Virus record (IMG/VR): IMGVR_UViG_3300027715_000010
Coordinates: 1-64,000 of that record
From: a virus
Taxonomy: Duplodnaviria; Caudoviricetes
Strand: one strand, 5' to 3'
DNA length: 64,000 nucleotides
Shown: piece by piece, positions 4,175-39,561 of the stretch
Position numbering within the stretch: position 1 is the first letter of the stretch
Layout of the letters: each line of letters opens with the position of its first letter
Translations under genes and position numbers: made by a program
Notes under the pieces: generated by a model
Seen by the model: only the letters and a program-made list of their open reading frames with translations
Told to the model about the DNA's origin: nothing
Database searches by the model: none

Positions 4175-4558
4175 ATGGATTTCAGTGATGTAAAGACCAA
4201 GTTTAATCTAGATGACACTGTCTACTTGAAAAAAGATGATGCTGTTATAGAAGGTACTATTATAAGCATAAAAGTTGATATTGATGTTTGTAATAGCTTT
4301 ATTGGTGATATGCGTGATATTACAATAATTTATACAGTAAATCTAGGAAACTATAAACTAGAAGTTAAAGAATGTGATAATATGTTATTCTCTAGTTTAG
4401 AAGAAGTTGGTAATCGTGATAAAGCTATTCGTCTAATGTATTTAGAGAATCTAAGGAGTAGTATCATTGAACTTAATAAAAAATATAATAAAGCCTTAGA
4501 AGAAAACAATGAAGAATTGGTACGACTTGAAAAAGAAATAGAAAAATTGAAAGGATAA
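4175..4558 (+). CDS. Hypothetical protein, paralogue family A (beta-barrel-like N-term + coiled coil)
   Basis: TKFNLDDTVY start, EKEIEKLKG end shared with 5124..5501. Confidence 0.7.
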   Translation: MDFSDVKTKFNLDDTVYLKKDDAVIEGTIISIKVDIDVCNSFIGDMRDITIIYTVNLGNYKLEVKECDNMLFSSLEEVGNRDKAIRLMYLENLRSSIIELNKKYNKALEENNEELVRLEKEIEKLKG

Positions 4559-4570
4559 GACTATGGAAAT
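4527..4570 (+). repeat. 44-bp direct repeat, copy 1 (copy 2 at 5470..5513)
   Basis: TTGAAAAAGAAATAGAAAAATTGAAAGGATAAG[A/T]CTATGGAAAT, one mismatch. Confidence 0.9.
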
Positions 4571-4904
4571 TGTAAAAGAAATTAAAAAACAAGTAATTTC
4601 TTATACTTGTGATGGTTGTGGCTGTCCAATTAAGGATAATAACAGAGGACAATTCAACTTTGATATGCGTCATAATACAAGACCTTATGATGATGAAAAT
4701 TCTCTTGGTTTTGAAATGACTATTGCCGGAGACTACTGTAGGACCTGTATGCGGATATTTGTAGAAGCATTTCTTAAGGCAGTTAAAGACTTTCCAGAAA
4801 GATATGATAACGATCGTGATAAAAAAGAAAAAGAATTATTTGAGAAGTCAAAGTCAGATCCAGAAATACAAAAAGCAATAAAAAATGAAGATGATGAGTG
4901 GTAA
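4563..4904 (+). CDS. Hypothetical Zn-binding protein
   Basis: CDGC ... CRTC. Confidence 0.6.
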   Translation: MEIVKEIKKQVISYTCDGCGCPIKDNNRGQFNFDMRHNTRPYDDENSLGFEMTIAGDYCRTCMRIFVEAFLKAVKDFPERYDNDRDKKEKELFEKSKSDPEIQKAIKNEDDEW

Positions 4905-5513: not shown

Positions 5514-5901
5514 AAAAGGAATTACTACAAAACATAACATCGGCGATACTGTATTTTATGCTAATGGCTATGCTAATGAAATTAAGGCAGTTAGTAGCAC
5601 TATCAATAGAATTACTTTTGAACGAGATATCAGTATTAACTCTGTGGGTAAAGAATATAATAATTATAGAGTATGTTATATGCTCACAAGTGGTTATTGG
5701 TTTGAAGAAGATGATGAAAGATTCTTAGTAGAGAAAAATGAAGTTGCCCTTGAAAAACTAATTAAAAAGGATGCTCTTCGTAAATTAAATAGTAAAAAAG
5801 AGCAGTTAGAAGTTAATATAGCAAATCATAAACACTCTATTGAATATGATACTATGATGCTCAAGAATATAAAAAAAGAGATAAAGGACACAAAATGCTA
5901 A
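5506..5901 (+). CDS. Hypothetical protein, paralogue family A
   Basis: TKHNIGDTVF; EED...LVEKN...LEKLIKK shared with 5124..5501. Confidence 0.7.
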   Translation: MEIKGITTKHNIGDTVFYANGYANEIKAVSSTINRITFERDISINSVGKEYNNYRVCYMLTSGYWFEEDDERFLVEKNEVALEKLIKKDALRKLNSKKEQLEVNIANHKHSIEYDTMMLKNIKKEIKDTKC

Positions 5902-6299
5902 CAGAATCTTACATATACTTGGCAAGTCCTTACTGGAACGAAGATCCAGCAATTAGACAAAAGAATGCGACCGCCGTTGCAAAAGTTGCTAGTGTATTAT
6001 TACTCAATAAGTTTCCAGTCTATTGTCCAATCGCAATGGGATGCTATATACAGAACTCATTACCAGAAGATAAGCAGAAGTTGCTTGATAATCCGGAAGT
6101 GTGGTCTGCCAATGAAGATTATATGATTAAACATTGTGATTTTGTCTTATTGGTGACTCTTGATGGTTGGGAAAAGTCTAACGGTGTAAGAAGAGAAACT
6201 GAAATTGCTAAGAAATATGGTAAGCAAGTTATTAGACAGCCATTAGATTACTTTGCAGATTCAAACACTAAGTTAGGTTTTGCAGATTTATTAAAATAA
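5895..6299 (+). CDS. DUF1937-like / nucleoside 2-deoxyribosyltransferase-fold protein
   Basis: IYLASPY, VYCPI, CD.VL...LDGWEKS.GV..E...A. Confidence 0.75.
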   Translation: MLTESYIYLASPYWNEDPAIRQKNATAVAKVASVLLLNKFPVYCPIAMGCYIQNSLPEDKQKLLDNPEVWSANEDYMIKHCDFVLLVTLDGWEKSNGVRRETEIAKKYGKQVIRQPLDYFADSNTKLGFADLLK

Positions 6300-30885: not shown

Positions 30886-31036
30886 TTGTAATATCCTTTA
30901 GAAGATTATCCGATACTTGCATTCTTATATTATCAATCTCAGATAATGCTCTATTTGCTAATTCTTTAGTAACTAAACTATTGTCGGGATTTTGTCCCTT
31001 AAATACTTGTTTCATAATAGTATTTATATTATCCAT
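30872..31036 (-). CDS. gp67-like prohead core protein, second copy (54 aa, missed by ORF track)
   Basis: Hand-translated MDNINTIM...ELANRALSEIDNIRMQVSDNLLKD; RBS AGGTG; aligns to 31045..31233. Confidence 0.65.
   Translation of the reverse strand: MDNINTIMKQVFKGQNPDNSLVTKELANRALSEIDNIRMQVSDNLLKDITNEAS
31021..31028 (-). promoter_or_regulatory. Late promoter TATAAATA (gp21)
   Basis: Consensus inside the small ORF, upstream of gp21. Confidence 0.6.
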
Positions 31037-33857: not shown

Positions 33858-34394
33858 TTAATTTATATCGTTAGTTGTAAAATGAGTAGCTTGGAACTTT
33901 ACATCAAATTCCTCTACTTTATCCACATCATTCCAATTCAACTTAACAGTGCCGATATCACTTGGCCAAGCATTATGAATTGTATAAGTTCTAATAATCG
34001 TAGAACCATCTACATCTAATTGCTGTACCGTGAGATCTTGCCAGTGCCCTTGTTTTACATCACCAGGGATTCTAGCATTATCTGTGAAGGACATTAAGCC
34101 ATTTTGCCATTGCTCAAAAGCTTTACGAACTTCAAAATCACGATCCAAACGAACACCAACTGACCACTCAATAGAAGGTCTATCACCAGGTATTGCAATC
34201 TTACGACCCATATACTCAACCGTGGTAATACCAGTGGTTAAAGTTGGAAGGTCTGTACTATTACAATAGAAAATAGATGACGTTGTTGGAACGGTCACGT
34301 AAGAAGGAAATGATAATTGTACACGAAAACGATTTGACCTTGCACCACCTTTAAACTGTGCAATAAAATCGTTTATATTTGTATTACTAGCCAT
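33858..34394 (-). CDS. gp19: Tail tube protein
   Basis: GGARSNRF.V, LP........Y.GR.I.I.GDR....W, V.QLD..G...R.Y....AWP..I....L.W. Confidence 0.95.
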   Translation of the reverse strand: MASNTNINDFIAQFKGGARSNRFRVQLSFPSYVTVPTTSSIFYCNSTDLPTLTTGITTVEYMGRKIAIPGDRPSIEWSVGVRLDRDFEVRKAFEQWQNGLMSFTDNARIPGDVKQGHWQDLTVQQLDVDGSTIIRTYTIHNAWPSDIGTVKLNWNDVDKVEEFDVKFQATHFTTNDIN

Positions 34395-34405
34395 AATTTA
34401 TCTCC

Positions 34406-36031
34406 TTAAGCTACTATTTCTTCAAAAGATACACCAGTACGGGTAGCAATGAAGTTTAGTTTAATAAAGTTGATTGAACGAGTTGGCTTAATAAACAAAT
34501 TAGCAACGAATTCATTACGATCTATAACTTCACCAGTATTATTGGTTTCATCGCATATTACGAGATAATCAACAACACCTCTACGACCTTGAACATCTCT
34601 TAAGAAAGGTTCTACCGTATTTATAAATGAGCGTCTTGTTATTTCGTCATTGAACTCAAACAACACATATTTTGAAGCTATCGCGATTGATTTTTCTAAT
34701 GTAATAAATAACATTCTTACATTGATACGGTCAAAAGCACTAGGTTTTGTTTGTAATGTTTTATCTCCATATAGTATAGCACCTTCATTAGGGAAGATAA
34801 CACAAGGATTGATTTGTGATTTGTATAATTCATCTCTTGTAGTCTGTGCTTGTGTATATGCAAACTTAACAACGTTCTTAATACGACCACGATTTAGACC
34901 TGCTGGACTAAACCAAGCATCTACATCGTTAGAAGTTTTTGCCATTAAACCAGCAATATCACCATTGAGTGGAACCCAACGATAAGTATCTGCATAACGA
35001 TCGTATTGATATTTCCAAGTACTATCCATAAATGCATAGTTAGAATTACCATATACGGTTCTTGTCGCTTTTACATTGGTTAAAATTGTACTAATAACAC
35101 TTACGTTTACGCAGTCTGTCTTAGCAGGTGATACGAAAACAACGCAATCTTTTCTTACTTCTGCGATATTATCAATTACCCATTTACCAACTGTAGAAGA
35201 TGCACCACCAACAAATAAGGTAGTTACGTCAACATCTTCAACTGATTGGAATAATGCCCAACCAGCTTCTAAGTCTGCATTAGCTGCAGTAGCACCATTG
35301 GCACCACCTGCTAAAGTTACCCCAGAAGAAGCACCAGTTAACAATGAAGCTTTAGCAACATTGATATATGCTGAGTTAGTTTTTAATCTTTCAACTACAT
35401 AATTTGTAGAACCATCAAAGCGTTTTGCTGTAGATGTTAAAGAAACATCGTCAAAAGTTTCTAATACGGTTCCAGCAGTACCAGTGATATTACCCAAAAC
35501 ATCAACTACTACAATATGGAATTGTGAAGCATCTGGAGCACTATCAAATAGGTCTCTATATGCCCAAGTATAATCACCAGAACTATCTACTACATCAAAT
35601 CCAGCAGTATCGCACCAAGCAACTTGAATAGAATTACCTAGAGCACCTGGATATTTTGCAATCCAAAGATCTGTTGATGTACTAAACGAAGTATTTTCAT
35701 ATTCGTCTTGATTTTTAATTAGTTGACCAGTAGTGCCAGCTGAAGCAGATGCCGTAGCATTCAAAGCACCAGTTCCTACTACGCGCACTAATTTAAGATT
35801 AGTAGCATAAGCTAAGAAACTAGCTGCTGCAAACCAACCTTCATAATTTGAACTTCCTGGTTTACCGAATTGAGAAACGAGGTTTTGCTCGCTATCAATC
35901 GTTGTGATAACATCTACAGGTCCCCAAGCAGCTTCCAATACTGTACCACCATTAGAGGTAGCGACAGCTGGAACGTAAGCTGATTGGTCTGTTTCTGTTA
36001 CTAAAACACCAGGAGATAATTGTGTAACCAT
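34406..36031 (-). CDS. gp18: Tail sheath protein
   Basis: SPGV...E.D, WGP, FGKP, WFSPAG.NRG, RD.LY...INP, GDKT...KPSAFDRINVR.LF, KP.RSINFI.LNF.ATR. Confidence 0.97.
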   Translation of the reverse strand: MVTQLSPGVLVTETDQSAYVPAVATSNGGTVLEAAWGPVDVITTIDSEQNLVSQFGKPGSSNYEGWFAAASFLAYATNLKLVRVVGTGALNATASASAGTTGQLIKNQDEYENTSFSTSTDLWIAKYPGALGNSIQVAWCDTAGFDVVDSSGDYTWAYRDLFDSAPDASQFHIVVVDVLGNITGTAGTVLETFDDVSLTSTAKRFDGSTNYVVERLKTNSAYINVAKASLLTGASSGVTLAGGANGATAANADLEAGWALFQSVEDVDVTTLFVGGASSTVGKWVIDNIAEVRKDCVVFVSPAKTDCVNVSVISTILTNVKATRTVYGNSNYAFMDSTWKYQYDRYADTYRWVPLNGDIAGLMAKTSNDVDAWFSPAGLNRGRIKNVVKFAYTQAQTTRDELYKSQINPCVIFPNEGAILYGDKTLQTKPSAFDRINVRMLFITLEKSIAIASKYVLFEFNDEITRRSFINTVEPFLRDVQGRRGVVDYLVICDETNNTGEVIDRNEFVANLFIKPTRSINFIKLNFIATRTGVSFEEIVA

Positions 36032-36112
36032 TTATTTTATGACTCCTTTTTACTTTTGCAAAAGTACCTCATTTCAGAGGCACAATTTCTTATGATATAG
36101 AAAAACTTTATA

Positions 36113-36146
36113 TATCTTCGTCTATATTTATGCTTACTAAAAAATC
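36113..36146 (-). repeat. Degenerate direct repeat, downstream of tnpB; contains variant late promoter CATAAATA for gp18
   Basis: GATTTTTTAG-TAAGCATAAATA-TAGACGAAGATA versus the upstream copy 37361..37395. Confidence 0.65.
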
Positions 36147-36150
36147 GGCG

Positions 36151-37305
36151 TTAATTTATTTCCGAAAGCAAAGGCTGCATATCACCTTTTTGTAATATAT
36201 TAATAGCTGCATTATAATCAGCATCCATTTCCACACCACACGAAGAGCACTTATAGTACTCCCCCTTTCTATTGGTTTTCATTATAACCCCACAACACGA
36301 GCATCTTTGGCTTGTATATGCTGGAGCAACCTTAGTAACCTGGAAACCTTCCATTTCACTAAGGAAACCTAATTTTTCTAATACTTGTCTATAAGACCAG
36401 TATTGCATTTTATTCATAAGATTTGTAGATAACTTAGTATTATTCTTAACTAATTTAAGATCTTCTACATATAATGTATGTAATTCTGTATCACTTACTA
36501 ATTTCTTGCATAATCTATTAATTTCATCTGTTTTATATTTAAGTAGTTTTTCATATCTTCTACTACCTCTTTGCTTCTTTGCAATTCTATTATAAAGATC
36601 TTTTAATTCTTTGCCATAGAATTCACCTTCAGAAGTACTAATTAACTTATTATAACCTATATCAATTCCTATCTTTTTACCAGTAGTCTTCTTATCTGGT
36701 GTTTTACATTCCCAAAAATAGTTGACATAATACTTACCATTTTTATTTGATAGTCGTACGGTATTCTTTCTTTTACAATTATTATACTTTTTCATATAGT
36801 TATATAATTGTACAGGAAATTTTATAGATTTAGAATATGGGGTTTTAATAAGAAGAAAATTATTTTGTATATTAAAAACTCTAGAATCCAAGCTTATATT
36901 GATATTCTTTAGATTTATTTTAATTCTTTTCTTATAGTTTATATTTAATTCTTTAAAGTGTTTTGAGGTAAACTTATATTGTCTACCATTTTTTAAGAAG
37001 TAACTATATACCTTCTTGTATCTTTTAAAGGTTCTATTCCTAGTATAGTTTATATTAGATCTAACAATTTCAGAAGCTTGCTTGTATATTATCTGCTTCC
37101 AACCAGAATGATGTATAGTATAACCTGGTAGTAAAGGTGAAGATAATAATGATTTTAATGGTATTTTTTCTTCTAATATATCTTGGATATACATTCTTAG
37201 TTGATTCTCATAGTCAATAAAAATACAATCTAGCATTTCTATTTTACCAGTGTTAGATAACATTAGACTATGTTTAGAAGTTCTTATATAAATACCGTCA
37301 GACAA
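36151..37305 (-). mobile_element. tnpB: TnpB RNA-guided endonuclease (IS200/IS605/IS607 family), no transposase in window
   Basis: RuvC-I GIDIG, RuvC-II VEDL, YTSQRC..CG, C..CG, RuvC-III DADYNAAINIL. Confidence 0.92.
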
Positions 37306-37360
37306 ATCAATAGTTCCTTTATTGGTGTTGTTTAGAGGGTATAGATTCGTCCAGAATCTT

Positions 37361-37395
37361 TATCCTCGTATAGTATTTATAATATCTAAAAAATC
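37361..37395 (-). repeat. Degenerate direct repeat, upstream of tnpB; contains late promoter TATAAATA (37374..37381)
   Basis: GATTTTTTAGATATTATAAATACTATACGAGGATA. Confidence 0.65.
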
Positions 37396-37412: not shown

Positions 37413-37490
37413 TAAAGTCGGTGGCCAAGTAAACGGAGGGGAAGACCTAGCCACCGTAGAATATAGCACCGGAGGAGAAAAGTGCTATAA
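37413..37490 (-). ncRNA. Putative late small RNA, two hairpins with anti-SD loops
   Basis: TATAGCAC-ttttCTCCTCCg-GTGCTATA and CGGTGGCTAGG-tcttCCCCTCCgttta-CTTGGCCACCG directly behind TATAAATA. Confidence 0.6.
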
Positions 37491-37493
37491 TAC

Positions 37494-37501
37494 TATTTAT
37501 A
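37494..37501 (-). promoter_or_regulatory. Late promoter TATAAATA overlapping the gp17 stop
   Basis: Consensus 4 nt before hairpin 1. Confidence 0.75.
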
Positions 37502-39074
37502 TTATCAATGAAGTATCATTATACAATCTATTAGTATCTTTATCTTCTACCCCATTATCAATATAAGTTACTGGCATAAAGTCATCAAAGTTAGTATTGA
37601 TAGTGTTTCTAAAACTAAGATCCGTCATATCCTTGAAATCATCTTTTGAAGAGAACCAGGCGAATAGAACTAGACCCATTACCAAGTCGTCGTGGTGTCC
37701 ATCATCTGCACAATAGGTATAACCATATCTAATAAAGTTGTTTAGTTCTGTTATGGTATTTTCATCGGTTAGAATTAACTTATCTTGCTCTATTAGTTCC
37801 TTTAGATTTATACAACCAATCTTCTTTACGTTCTTATTGGTTCTAATACCCATTACACCTTTTTCCGTAAAGATTATATTTTCATATTCACACTCGTGTA
37901 AAAGTATATGCCCAACCTCTTGTCCAACCGAATTGGTCTCTAATAATACATAAGCATTATTGAACTTTCTGGCAACTTCATAGATAACATCTGGAAACTG
38001 TAAATAACTCATTGTATTATCATAAAAAGTTGCAACCTGACGCATCGGGAACTCTGTAATATCTATCACACTAAACGCATTATAGTCCTGTCCTTTACCC
38101 TCTGAGCAATCCACGGTTAGCATATAAACATTACTTTTTTTGCTTTCTTCATCTGTCTTAGGGTATTCATATACACGAAGACCATCTTTCTGATACTCTG
38201 GTTTACCATTTACCAAATTACGTAGTTTAGTTGCAGATATCAATGTATCACAAGATCCAAGAAAAGCATTATTGTATTCTTGCTCAAACTTATCTAAGGA
38301 CATCGTTTTAAGCATCTTTTCTTTCCAGGCGTCATCTCTACCAGGAACGTCCCAATAGTTAACCTTAATTGGACAGAATAAAGAATTACCTTGCTCGGCA
38401 TCCGTCCACATCTGATAAAAATGATTAAGTCCATTTGGTGTAGATGATATAATAATCTTTGAATTCTTACCAGATGAGATAGTAGGGAATACGGAACTTA
38501 TAAACTCTTGAGCTAAGTCATTGGAAATAAAAGAGAACTCATCAAGGAGCACACTTGAGATTGAACGCCCACGCACTGCGGAAGCACTTGTAGCACTTGC
38601 AGTAATCTTAGAACCATTTTCCAGCTCAATAGAACTCTTATTCCATTCCACGATACCGATCTGCATCCAGAAAGGTAGATTTTCATACATCAGTTTAATA
38701 CGTCCAAGCAGTTCCAATGCGATTGCGTGTTTATTGGCAAGGATTGCGCATTCGTGATAATCATTGAATATAACTGCGTGTAATAGATAAATCAGACCAC
38801 TGGTAGACTTACCAGTTTGTCTTGGGGATAGAACTATCGTAAATCTGTTATCGTAGTAACTCTGGACAAGTCTTTCTTGGTATGGATAAAGATTGATATT
38901 CATTAGACCCTTATCCAGGTTAATAATCTTTACATAATTATTAGCAAAGTACTTAATATCAGTTTTACACCTGATAAGTTCGTCTATTTGCTCTTGAGTA
39001 AAGTTAACCTTAACGTTCTCAGCTTTAAGTCTTGGATTGTTAAGATAATACTGTGGACCTTTGAATTCTTTCAT
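37497..39074 (-). CDS. gp17: Terminase large subunit
   Basis: Y..NP.LK, PRQTGKS, ILANK...A, ELENGS.I, LLDEF, SSTPNG.NHFY, DD.VM.LV.F.W; no intein seen. Confidence 0.98.
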   Translation of the reverse strand: MKEFKGPQYYLNNPRLKAENVKVNFTQEQIDELIRCKTDIKYFANNYVKIINLDKGLMNINLYPYQERLVQSYYDNRFTIVLSPRQTGKSTSGLIYLLHAVIFNDYHECAILANKHAIALELLGRIKLMYENLPFWMQIGIVEWNKSSIELENGSKITASATSASAVRGRSISSVLLDEFSFISNDLAQEFISSVFPTISSGKNSKIIISSTPNGLNHFYQMWTDAEQGNSLFCPIKVNYWDVPGRDDAWKEKMLKTMSLDKFEQEYNNAFLGSCDTLISATKLRNLVNGKPEYQKDGLRVYEYPKTDEESKKSNVYMLTVDCSEGKGQDYNAFSVIDITEFPMRQVATFYDNTMSYLQFPDVIYEVARKFNNAYVLLETNSVGQEVGHILLHECEYENIIFTEKGVMGIRTNKNVKKIGCINLKELIEQDKLILTDENTITELNNFIRYGYTYCADDGHHDDLVMGLVLFAWFSSKDDFKDMTDLSFRNTINTNFDDFMPVTYIDNGVEDKDTNRLYNDTSLII

Positions 39075-39090: not shown

Positions 39091-39561
39091 TTAGACCTTT
39101 ATATCTTCGGATGTATCTTTCTTTTTATTACCAATCATTTCAAGCACTTCCTTGGTAGATCCAACAAGTAAAGTCTGATTGGTTATATTTTGTACAGAAC
39201 CATTTTCTGGAGTAGGGAACTTGCTGGTAGCATCCTTACGTGTTTTATAAAGTTGTATCAACTTTTCATTGGCAGTTACTATCTCTTTCATCATTTTAGT
39301 AATCTGCTCATAGATCTTTGGTTCTTGTGTCATAGCTGCAAGTTGCATAAGTTCTTGCATATTTTGATTACCGGTATCTATCACGTTCTTTAGTTGCTTT
39401 CTTGCATAATCAAAGTCATCGTCTATATTACCAGGGGTGGATTCTGGTTCTACATCAATGATTTTCTCTTCCCGTGGTGTGATATTCATTAGAGGTTTTA
39501 GTTCTCTACCGATATCTTCGGCAATATCTAAAACTTGTCCTAACTTTTGGTTTGGTATCAT
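39091..39561 (-). CDS. gp16: Terminase small subunit
   Basis: DD.DYAR..L...I..G, P..YE, N...VGST.E.L; position. Confidence 0.88.
   Translation of the reverse strand: MIPNQKLGQVLDIAEDIGRELKPLMNITPREEKIIDVEPESTPGNIDDDFDYARKQLKNVIDTGNQNMQELMQLAAMTQEPKIYEQITKMMKEIVTANEKLIQLYKTRKDATSKFPTPENGSVQNITNQTLLVGSTKEVLEMIGNKKKDTSEDIKV

Follow-up and report, generated by a model that had tools for sequence, protein, structure and literature searches.

We analysed the first 64,000 nt (the window) of IMG/VR record IMGVR_UViG_3300027715_000010, a linear record of 94,378 bp (about 52% complete by CheckV) from an uncultured, AT-rich (33% GC) T4-like myovirus, and found between its gp17 and gp18 genes a tnpB gene whose product is, judged by sequence and predicted structure, a full-length TnpB, a complete and catalytically competent-looking RNA-guided nuclease. 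The reading that we favour, with a probability of roughly 0.55 for its three parts taken together, is that this insert of about 1.2-1.26 kb is a transposase-less derivative of an IS607/IS605-type insertion sequence (IS), that it would have arrived by recombination with a diverged donor phage and not by classical transposition, and that its most likely role is selfish, namely homing.

The TnpB protein and its clade

The 384-aa open reading frame (ORF) matched Pfam Cas12f1-like_TNB (PF07282) at 1e-19 and scored 111.9 bits on the NCBIfam guided_TnpB model (cut-off 100); matches to Pfam OrfB_IS605 and to the NCBIfam IS200/IS605 TnpB (63 bits) and IS607 TnpB (34 bits) models fell below their cut-offs. 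An earlier note on this DNA had described all three RuvC acidic residues and the zinc finger as intact, and this proved correct: in an alignment of 26 homologues (42-50% identical), the RuvC triad D215 (GIDIGY), E281 (VEDLK) and D363 (DADYNAA) was invariant, as was the CCCC zinc finger (C335/C338/C353/C356). Known TnpB-derived regulators (TldR) have lost RuvC catalytic residues, a loss that the intact triad of the window protein does not show. The C-terminal ADYNAA motif aligned to AsCas12f, and an AlphaFold (AF2) model of the protein (pLDDT 86.7) retrieved AsCas12f (9e-15), ISFba1 TnpB (1.4e-12) and ISDra2 TnpB (1.3e-11 to 4e-8) with Foldseek. A 384-codon frame at 27% GC would be unlikely to persist open barring selection or recent arrival, and since the GC content of tnpB (26.8%) lies below that of gp16-gp19 (35-37%), the gene looks imported. 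The identical TnpB protein occurs in at least three assemblies, including contigs of 119 kb (JGI), 127 kb (ENA) and 16.5 kb (Logan).

The absence of TnpA that the earlier note reported for the window extends to the whole 94,378-bp record, in which we found neither a Y1 TnpA (PF01797) nor a serine recombinase/resolvase (PF00239); as about half of the genome is missing, this does not prove that the phage lacks a transposase. No second tnpB was found in the record. A tnpB without tnpA is the arrangement of IS1341-type (tnpB-only) elements. As to ends, relatives have the right end G[TC]AACTAT in common, and the window has a 6/8 look-alike of it plus a left hairpin as candidate ends. Unlike IS1341-type elements, which come without target duplication, the window tnpB is surrounded by a 35-nt diverged direct repeat, and unlike IS607 elements it has no adjoining serine TnpA in the record.

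The clade to which this TnpB belongs is found mostly in phages and viral contigs. A protein search returned 300 homologues at E<=1e-10 (about 390 aa, at most 50% identical), and a profile scan found 79 IMG/VR loci, many on contigs of 100-430 kb; the same profile gave two full-length matches in 185,579 species genomes (one genome per species), both in metagenome-assembled genomes (MAGs). These sole full-length matches in cellular bins lie on a Treponema MAG contig (L165) and a Bacilli MAG contig (L164). Since the left end of L165 carries the T4-type late-promoter motif TATAAATA and is 83% identical to that of the IMG/VR copy L143, its contig may stem from a phage that ended up in the same bin as the MAG.

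Members of the clade behave as mobile elements. Some phage records hold two to four diverged tnpB copies, copies stand in mixed orientation relative to neighbouring genes, and the L098/L099 elements are 94-95% identical to those of L102 and L096 on phage contigs of about 100 kb that have no other detectable DNA in common, which shows horizontal movement; contigs with L098/L099-like elements offered no common flanking DNA for an empty-site comparison. A serine-recombinase gene lies directly upstream of tnpB, and overlaps it, in six loci (L098, L139, L140, L154, L155 and L157; the L155 gene matches Pfam Resolvase at 6e-18), and remnants of one lie upstream of tnpB in L101, L113, L146/L147 and L149. 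Because some members have a serine TnpA, the clade is IS607-related, and most copies, the window's included, have lost tnpA. Y1 TnpA was absent from five multi-copy phage records; the idea, drawn from that absence, of a clade without any transposase is ruled out by the upstream serine TnpAs. The six complete IS607-type members showed no obvious common core at their left and right ends.

The earlier note had called the element domesticated. This description is not borne out by a clade of mobile IS607/IS605-type elements with recognisable ends, multi-copy phages, copies 94-95% identical and, in some members, TnpA, nor by the foreign base composition of the window gene; the window element is more probably a selfish mobile cassette than a domesticated gene.

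Two features of individual members are recorded here. One subfamily has an RHH-like ORF of about 44 aa (Pfam RepB-RCR_reg, 21.1 bits, cut-off 21) at L096:4870-5001, whose closing ATAATG overlaps the start of tnpB; the ORF recurs at the same position in L099 and L102 and occupies the slot held by the serine TnpA in the sister copy L098. In L088-L094 and L131 (about 6110-6120) and in G009 an in-frame TGA falls within the catalytic DAD-x-NA motif and a later stop follows, which suggests that these phages use a code with TGA as a sense codon.

The ends of the elements differ in regularity. After the NAAxNI residues, family tails consist of a hairpin in the coding end (hairpin 1), an A-rich spacer, a variable hairpin 2 and the conserved terminus G[TC]AACTAT (GTAACTAT), directly past which copies in different contexts diverge. 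The six pairs of hairpin 1 were paired in 81% of cells (67% in shuffles) and gave a covariation score of 0.545 (0.226 in shuffles; 0/500 as high; slid controls <=0.28), and since the compensatory changes span codons, they argue for structure at the RNA level, as would be expected of an omegaRNA scaffold. By eye, hairpin 1 (AAAGG/CCUUU, about 36190-36170) is retained in the window with 5/6 pairs, including one GC-to-AU compensatory change. Folding of the 161-nt candidate scaffold gave z = -2.1, and Rfam returned nothing meaningful. Its terminus-like TTAGTAAGCAT, which ends at 36130, resembles TTAGTAACTAT and matches the family terminus at 6/8 positions. Left ends are very variable, from about 130 nt with a hairpin in one group to 39-74 nt in others and nothing past the ATG in others again; the left boundaries of L088, L092, L131 and L093 follow TTTAA, TTTAG, TTTAG and TTTCA, respectively. 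In several subfamilies TATAAATA lies 13-40 nt before the ATG, within the left end common to the copies and even where neighbouring genes are on the opposite strand, which suggests that the late promoter is carried by the element itself.

The gp17-gp18 junction and its flanking repeat

The features of the junction, in minus-strand order, are as follows.

39091-39561, minus strand: gp16, upstream of gp17
37497..39074, minus strand: gp17, large terminase, left neighbour of tnpB
37361..37395, minus strand: upstream repeat copy (GATTTTTTAGATATTATAAATACTATACGAGGATA), containing TATAAATA
37374..37381, minus strand: T4-type late-promoter motif TATAAATA, 76 nt ahead of the TTG
37335..37367, minus strand: leader or left-end hairpin GAGGATAAAGATTC-TGGAC-GAATCTATACCCTC, 12/14 pairs by eye
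37315..37320, minus strand: Shine-Dalgarno-like AAAGGA, 9 nt before the TTG
36151..37305, minus strand: tnpB ORF, 384 aa, TTG start, between gp17 and gp18
36130..36290, minus strand: putative omegaRNA scaffold, comprising the 3' coding end and the tail
36113..36146, minus strand: downstream repeat copy (GATTTTTTAGTAAGCATAAATATAGACGAAGATA), containing CATAAATA at 36132-36125; candidate guide/target region
36032..36112, minus strand: rest of the gp18 leader, with a hairpin and UUUU, then the ribosome-binding site (RBS) AAAGGAG and the gp18 ATG at 36031
34406..36031, minus strand: gp18, tail sheath, right neighbour of tnpB
33858-34394, minus strand: gp19, tube, following gp18

The late-promoter motif, hairpin and RBS that the earlier note placed upstream of tnpB can all be read from the sequence. 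Because at least eight other genes in the window also have TATAAATA 28-43 nt ahead of their ATG, the motif is a plausible late promoter; the distances at this junction are atypical beside those 28-43 nt, at 76 nt for tnpB and 101 nt from CATAAATA to the gp18 ATG, and the downstream CATAAATA may be the gp18 promoter. A TTTAG at 37390-37386, 18 nt ahead of the left hairpin, is one candidate left boundary of the element.

The degenerate direct repeat of about 35 bp reported by the earlier note is real: its copies (37395-37361 and 36146-36113) are identical at 28/35 columns, a score reached in none of 2000 shuffles. Across 94 kb, the 10-mer GATTTTTTAG is present at the two tnpB flanks only. When all 527 pairs of NATAAATA sites were scored (mean 18, sd 3.3), the flanking pair came third with 33; two unrelated pairs outscore it (36-37), so that the similarity belongs in part to a general extended late-promoter context (GATAATATAAATACTATTAT). 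The idea that the whole tnpB leader is a duplicate of the gp18 leader was rejected, as similarity beyond the first 35-41 nt is at shuffle level.

Three other features lie close by. A further TATAAATA at 37501-37494 (minus strand) overlaps the gp17 stop codon and has the extended context GATAATATAAATA[GC]TATTAT in common with the TATAAATA at 31021-31028 (minus strand; pair score 36), and an ATG just 5 nt past the motif at 31028 suggests that a late transcript without a leader starts there. The stretch separating the gp17 stop codon from the upstream copy of the repeat (window 37418-37496, minus strand) contains two hairpins, UUUUCUCCUCC and CUUCCCCUCCGUUUA, that are rich in G+C, have C-rich loops and are unusual for a genome of 33% GC. 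The gp18-leader hairpin GTGCCTC-TGAAAT-GAGGTAC (36083-36064, minus strand), followed by UUUU and lying 30 nt before the ATG, downstream of the sole promoter-like motif, could be an attenuator or an RNA-stability element; a simple terminator scan found no site in the gp18 leader.

Similar duplications recur across the clade. We compared the 300 nt upstream of tnpB with 230 nt comprising the last part of the tail and the downstream DNA, using mismatched locus pairs as the control, and obtained scores above the 99th percentile of those pairs at 9 of 64 non-redundant loci, where about 0.6 were expected. The repeats were 99 nt in L144, 115 nt in L150, 41 nt in L156 and 26 nt in L149; the 39-nt repeat of L141 is an RBS leader, one copy of which directly precedes the tnpB ATG and the other the next gene, the 43-nt repeat of L093 is the late promoter of the next gene, and the 44-nt repeat of L164 is a solo right end with its flank. 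Of seven cases followed in detail, four (L144, L150, L149 and L156) have a downstream copy that begins no more than 4 nt from the right end. In the two coding duplications, L144 and L150, most differences fall at third codon positions (10/15 and 18/23), with 4/32 amino-acid changes each. Since the differences are mostly synonymous, both copies must have been under coding constraint while they diverged, and the simplest setting for this is two separate genomes, a pattern that points to recombination with a diverged donor; we infer that cassettes of this clade often arrive together with their right flank by this route. The L144 element itself lies inside a host-phage gene, with a 33-codon segment on both sides (4551-4649 and 5824-5922), and an in-frame GTG arises at its right-end junction; expression of the interrupted gene as two fragments that overlap is therefore possible.

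Route of arrival and competing explanations

We reasoned that a cassette arriving by recombination with a diverged donor phage, possibly as a circle or fragment of cassette plus right flank that integrates at a matching site, would leave a right junction that is precise, a left junction that varies and a flank duplicated in homeologous form. The DNA adjacent to the right end, from which a guide would be taken, is present a second time, diverged, upstream of tnpB, and we read this as the trace of such an arrival; as the window repeat fits the clade pattern, the tnpB and gp18 promoters may be two versions of one regulatory segment. RNA from the gp18-promoter region could, late in infection, direct TnpB to cut element-free alleles of co-infecting relatives, and repair from the carrier genome would copy the cassette together with adjoining markers. 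Such homing against co-infecting relatives is plausible, as it fits the anatomy of the locus: an intact nuclease, late signals, and conserved genes that could act as homology arms.

A right-end boundary at 36147, one of the two candidates discussed below, would place the start of the repeat exactly at the element end, as in several relatives, and the guide would match the upstream copy in its first 10 nt and at 18/22 positions. The autoregulation that the earlier note proposed, through an imperfect match of the guide to tnpB's own promoter, is speculative, as it requires both this boundary and a suitable target-adjacent motif (TAM). In the 94-kb record the candidate guides had no other near-match beyond chance. 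The most far-reaching form of the argument is that cassettes of this clade spread transposase-free together with the guide-side flank, duplicating it by recombination, so that one copy drives tnpB and the other gp18, and that the guide could target naive relatives and partly pair with the tnpB promoter; this we would put forward only tentatively, and we think it well short of an even bet.

Several observations weigh against arrival by recombination followed by homing. The window repeat lies at, not above, the 99th percentile of the mismatched control pairs, and its similarity is partly the general late-promoter context of the phage. The ATG of relatives (MIRTSKH) is ATA in the window, the frame staying open six codons further, to the TTG at 37305, so that the canonical start is lost and translation must begin at this TTG. 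As the TnpB copies in the three assemblies are identical, they are uninformative on selection. The right end is degenerate: a covariance model (R1, built from 29 family tails) gave no match to the window tail, and whereas L259, the closest DNA relative (partial; 61% protein identity), has AATTAAC as 5' arm of a strong hairpin 2, the window keeps this arm without a matching 3' arm, so that hairpin 2 is degenerate or truncated. The right-end boundary, at 36130 or 36147, is ambiguous, which leaves the guide undefined, and no TAM consensus was derivable.

The comparative evidence adds to these points. We found no element-free allele and no close relative of the window phage: a megablast search with 5.5 kb against a phage collection and a scan of IMG/VR with a gp17 peptide gave no match, a metagenome scan found no close relative, gp18 relatives reached about 50% identity at best, and an 18-mer of the right flank had chance coding matches only. 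In L131 the cassette replaces about 430 bp of a related phage (G001:5725-6155), comprising parts of two genes, and homology between the two resumes 5 nt past the right end, at a flank that itself begins GTAAC; the G001 site was therefore rejected as a clean empty site.

The alternative that survives best, possible but distinctly less probable than recombination and homing, is that a tnpB-only IS was inserted 3' of TTTAG by a transposase acting in trans, from the host or from another element, the similarity of the flanks being promoter context plus chance. The spacing of TTTAG 18 nt ahead of the window hairpin is presumably IS608-like, the left boundaries of the L088/L092/L131/L093 group follow the same or related pentamers, the clade contains serine TnpA genes, and the late-promoter sites of the phage share an extended consensus, with two other pairs scoring as high or higher. 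In addition, TTTAA is a known IS605 target (PMC13565253). Insertion in trans does not sit easily with the restriction of the exact 10-mer GATTTTTTAG to the two flanks, with flank duplications in 9/64 loci that include coding ones with synonymous differences, or with left junctions that are highly variable across the clade, some of them at the ATG itself. Moreover, IS200/IS605 and IS607 elements are not known to create such flank duplications.

Somewhat less probable still is that the insert is an inert passenger, a recently immobilised relic whose guide-RNA end is damaged and whose TnpB is low or absent and functionless. With a right end this degenerate, inactivity of the cassette is a serious possibility: the family model misses its tail, hairpin 2 has decayed and the terminus matches at only 6/8 positions, the ATG start is gone, and the record holds a single copy and no transposase. 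A relic of this kind has to be squared, however, with a 384-codon frame that is intact at 26.8% GC and keeps every invariant catalytic and zinc-binding residue, with the retention of the promoter, the RBS and hairpin 1, and with the recurrence of the same genotype in at least three assemblies.

We consider it improbable that the element serves a domesticated phage function, whether as an RNA-guided weapon without self-copying or as a guide-directed binder tuning the tnpB promoter or the gp18 promoter, because its relatives are multi-copy, in both orientations and in unrelated contexts, as for a mobile element, and because its nuclease residues are intact, unlike those of TldR; what speaks for such a function is that a guide set by the 36147 boundary shares its first 10 nt and 18/22 positions with the repeat copy overlapping the tnpB promoter. 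The site between conserved late genes and the late promoter also resemble those of free-standing homing endonucleases that exclude competitors (PMC13565253).

Known systems and significance

TnpB cuts TAM-adjacent DNA that matches a guide derived from just past the right end of its element, and its known biological role is homing by break-stimulated recombination (PMC8612924, PMC10055086). The window protein matches the TnpB of the ISDra2/IS605 TnpB-omegaRNA homing systems (Karvelis 2021, PMC8612924; Meers 2023, PMC10055086) in fold and catalytic residues, and, like them, it would have a structured RNA overlapping the 3' end of the gene and a guide expected just past the right end. Known homing, however, refills a TnpA-emptied site on the sister chromosome, whereas here no TnpA is present and the target would be a co-infecting phage. 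Cutting of the orthologous site of co-infecting phages ('non-restorative homing') has been reviewed as theoretically possible, though undemonstrated for phages (PMC13565253).

With IS607 the element has relatives in common, several clade members having a resolvase-domain TnpA that overlaps the tnpB start and the same right-end terminus; it differs from IS607 in having no TnpA and in its left part, which is a late-promoter leader, and it scores higher on the IS200/IS605 than on the IS607 model. The tnpB-only elements of T4-like Campylobacter phages, ISCaje1-3 of CP220/CPt10, reported in 2010 and belonging to the IS200/IS605 family (PMC2853527), resemble the window element as transposase-less tnpB genes in AT-rich T4-like myoviruses and, like the present clade, form diverged copies at different sites in related phages. 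Internal late promoters and long diverged right-flank duplications, which we find in the present clade, are not described in the portions of that report drawn on here (PMC2853527); the clade here also includes copies with serine recombinases, and the likeness to ISCaje1-3 is one of description. Further tnpB genes of phages are mentioned in the literature, with no experiments on their mechanism (bioRxiv 10.64898/2026.02.14.705889; PMC11437467).

In layout the locus also recalls the free-standing homing endonuclease genes of T-even phages (seg, mob), which likewise encode small selfish nucleases, sit between conserved genes and have promoters of their own, and by analogy its expected effect would be localized marker exclusion in mixed infections (intronless homing); it differs from them in that recognition would be by RNA rather than by protein and in that its protein belongs to an unrelated family. 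Promoter-stem-loop (PeSL) mobile regulatory cassettes of T4-type phages, reportedly described by Arbiol et al. 2010, are said to have early-promoter repeats and non-nuclease cargo. As in PeSL cassettes, the window has an ORF between direct repeats of regulatory sequence, a layout that would permit excision as a circle and homologous re-integration; unlike them, its repeats carry a late-type promoter and its cargo is a nuclease.

Elements with tnpB but no transposase make up a sizeable share of TnpB loci, and their persistence and movement call for an explanation. That tnpB-only elements occur in T4-like phages was known already; what merits experimental follow-up is the set of clade-level features. 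The clade offers a concrete test bed, being mostly phage-borne, with late promoters and near-identical copies in unrelated phages, with precise right and variable left junctions, with homeologous duplications of the guide-side flank, and with loss of tnpA. If spread by recombination is not what happens, the locus is simply one more IS copy in a phage genome; if it is, a phage TnpB would act like a free-standing homing endonuclease whose target can be read from the DNA.

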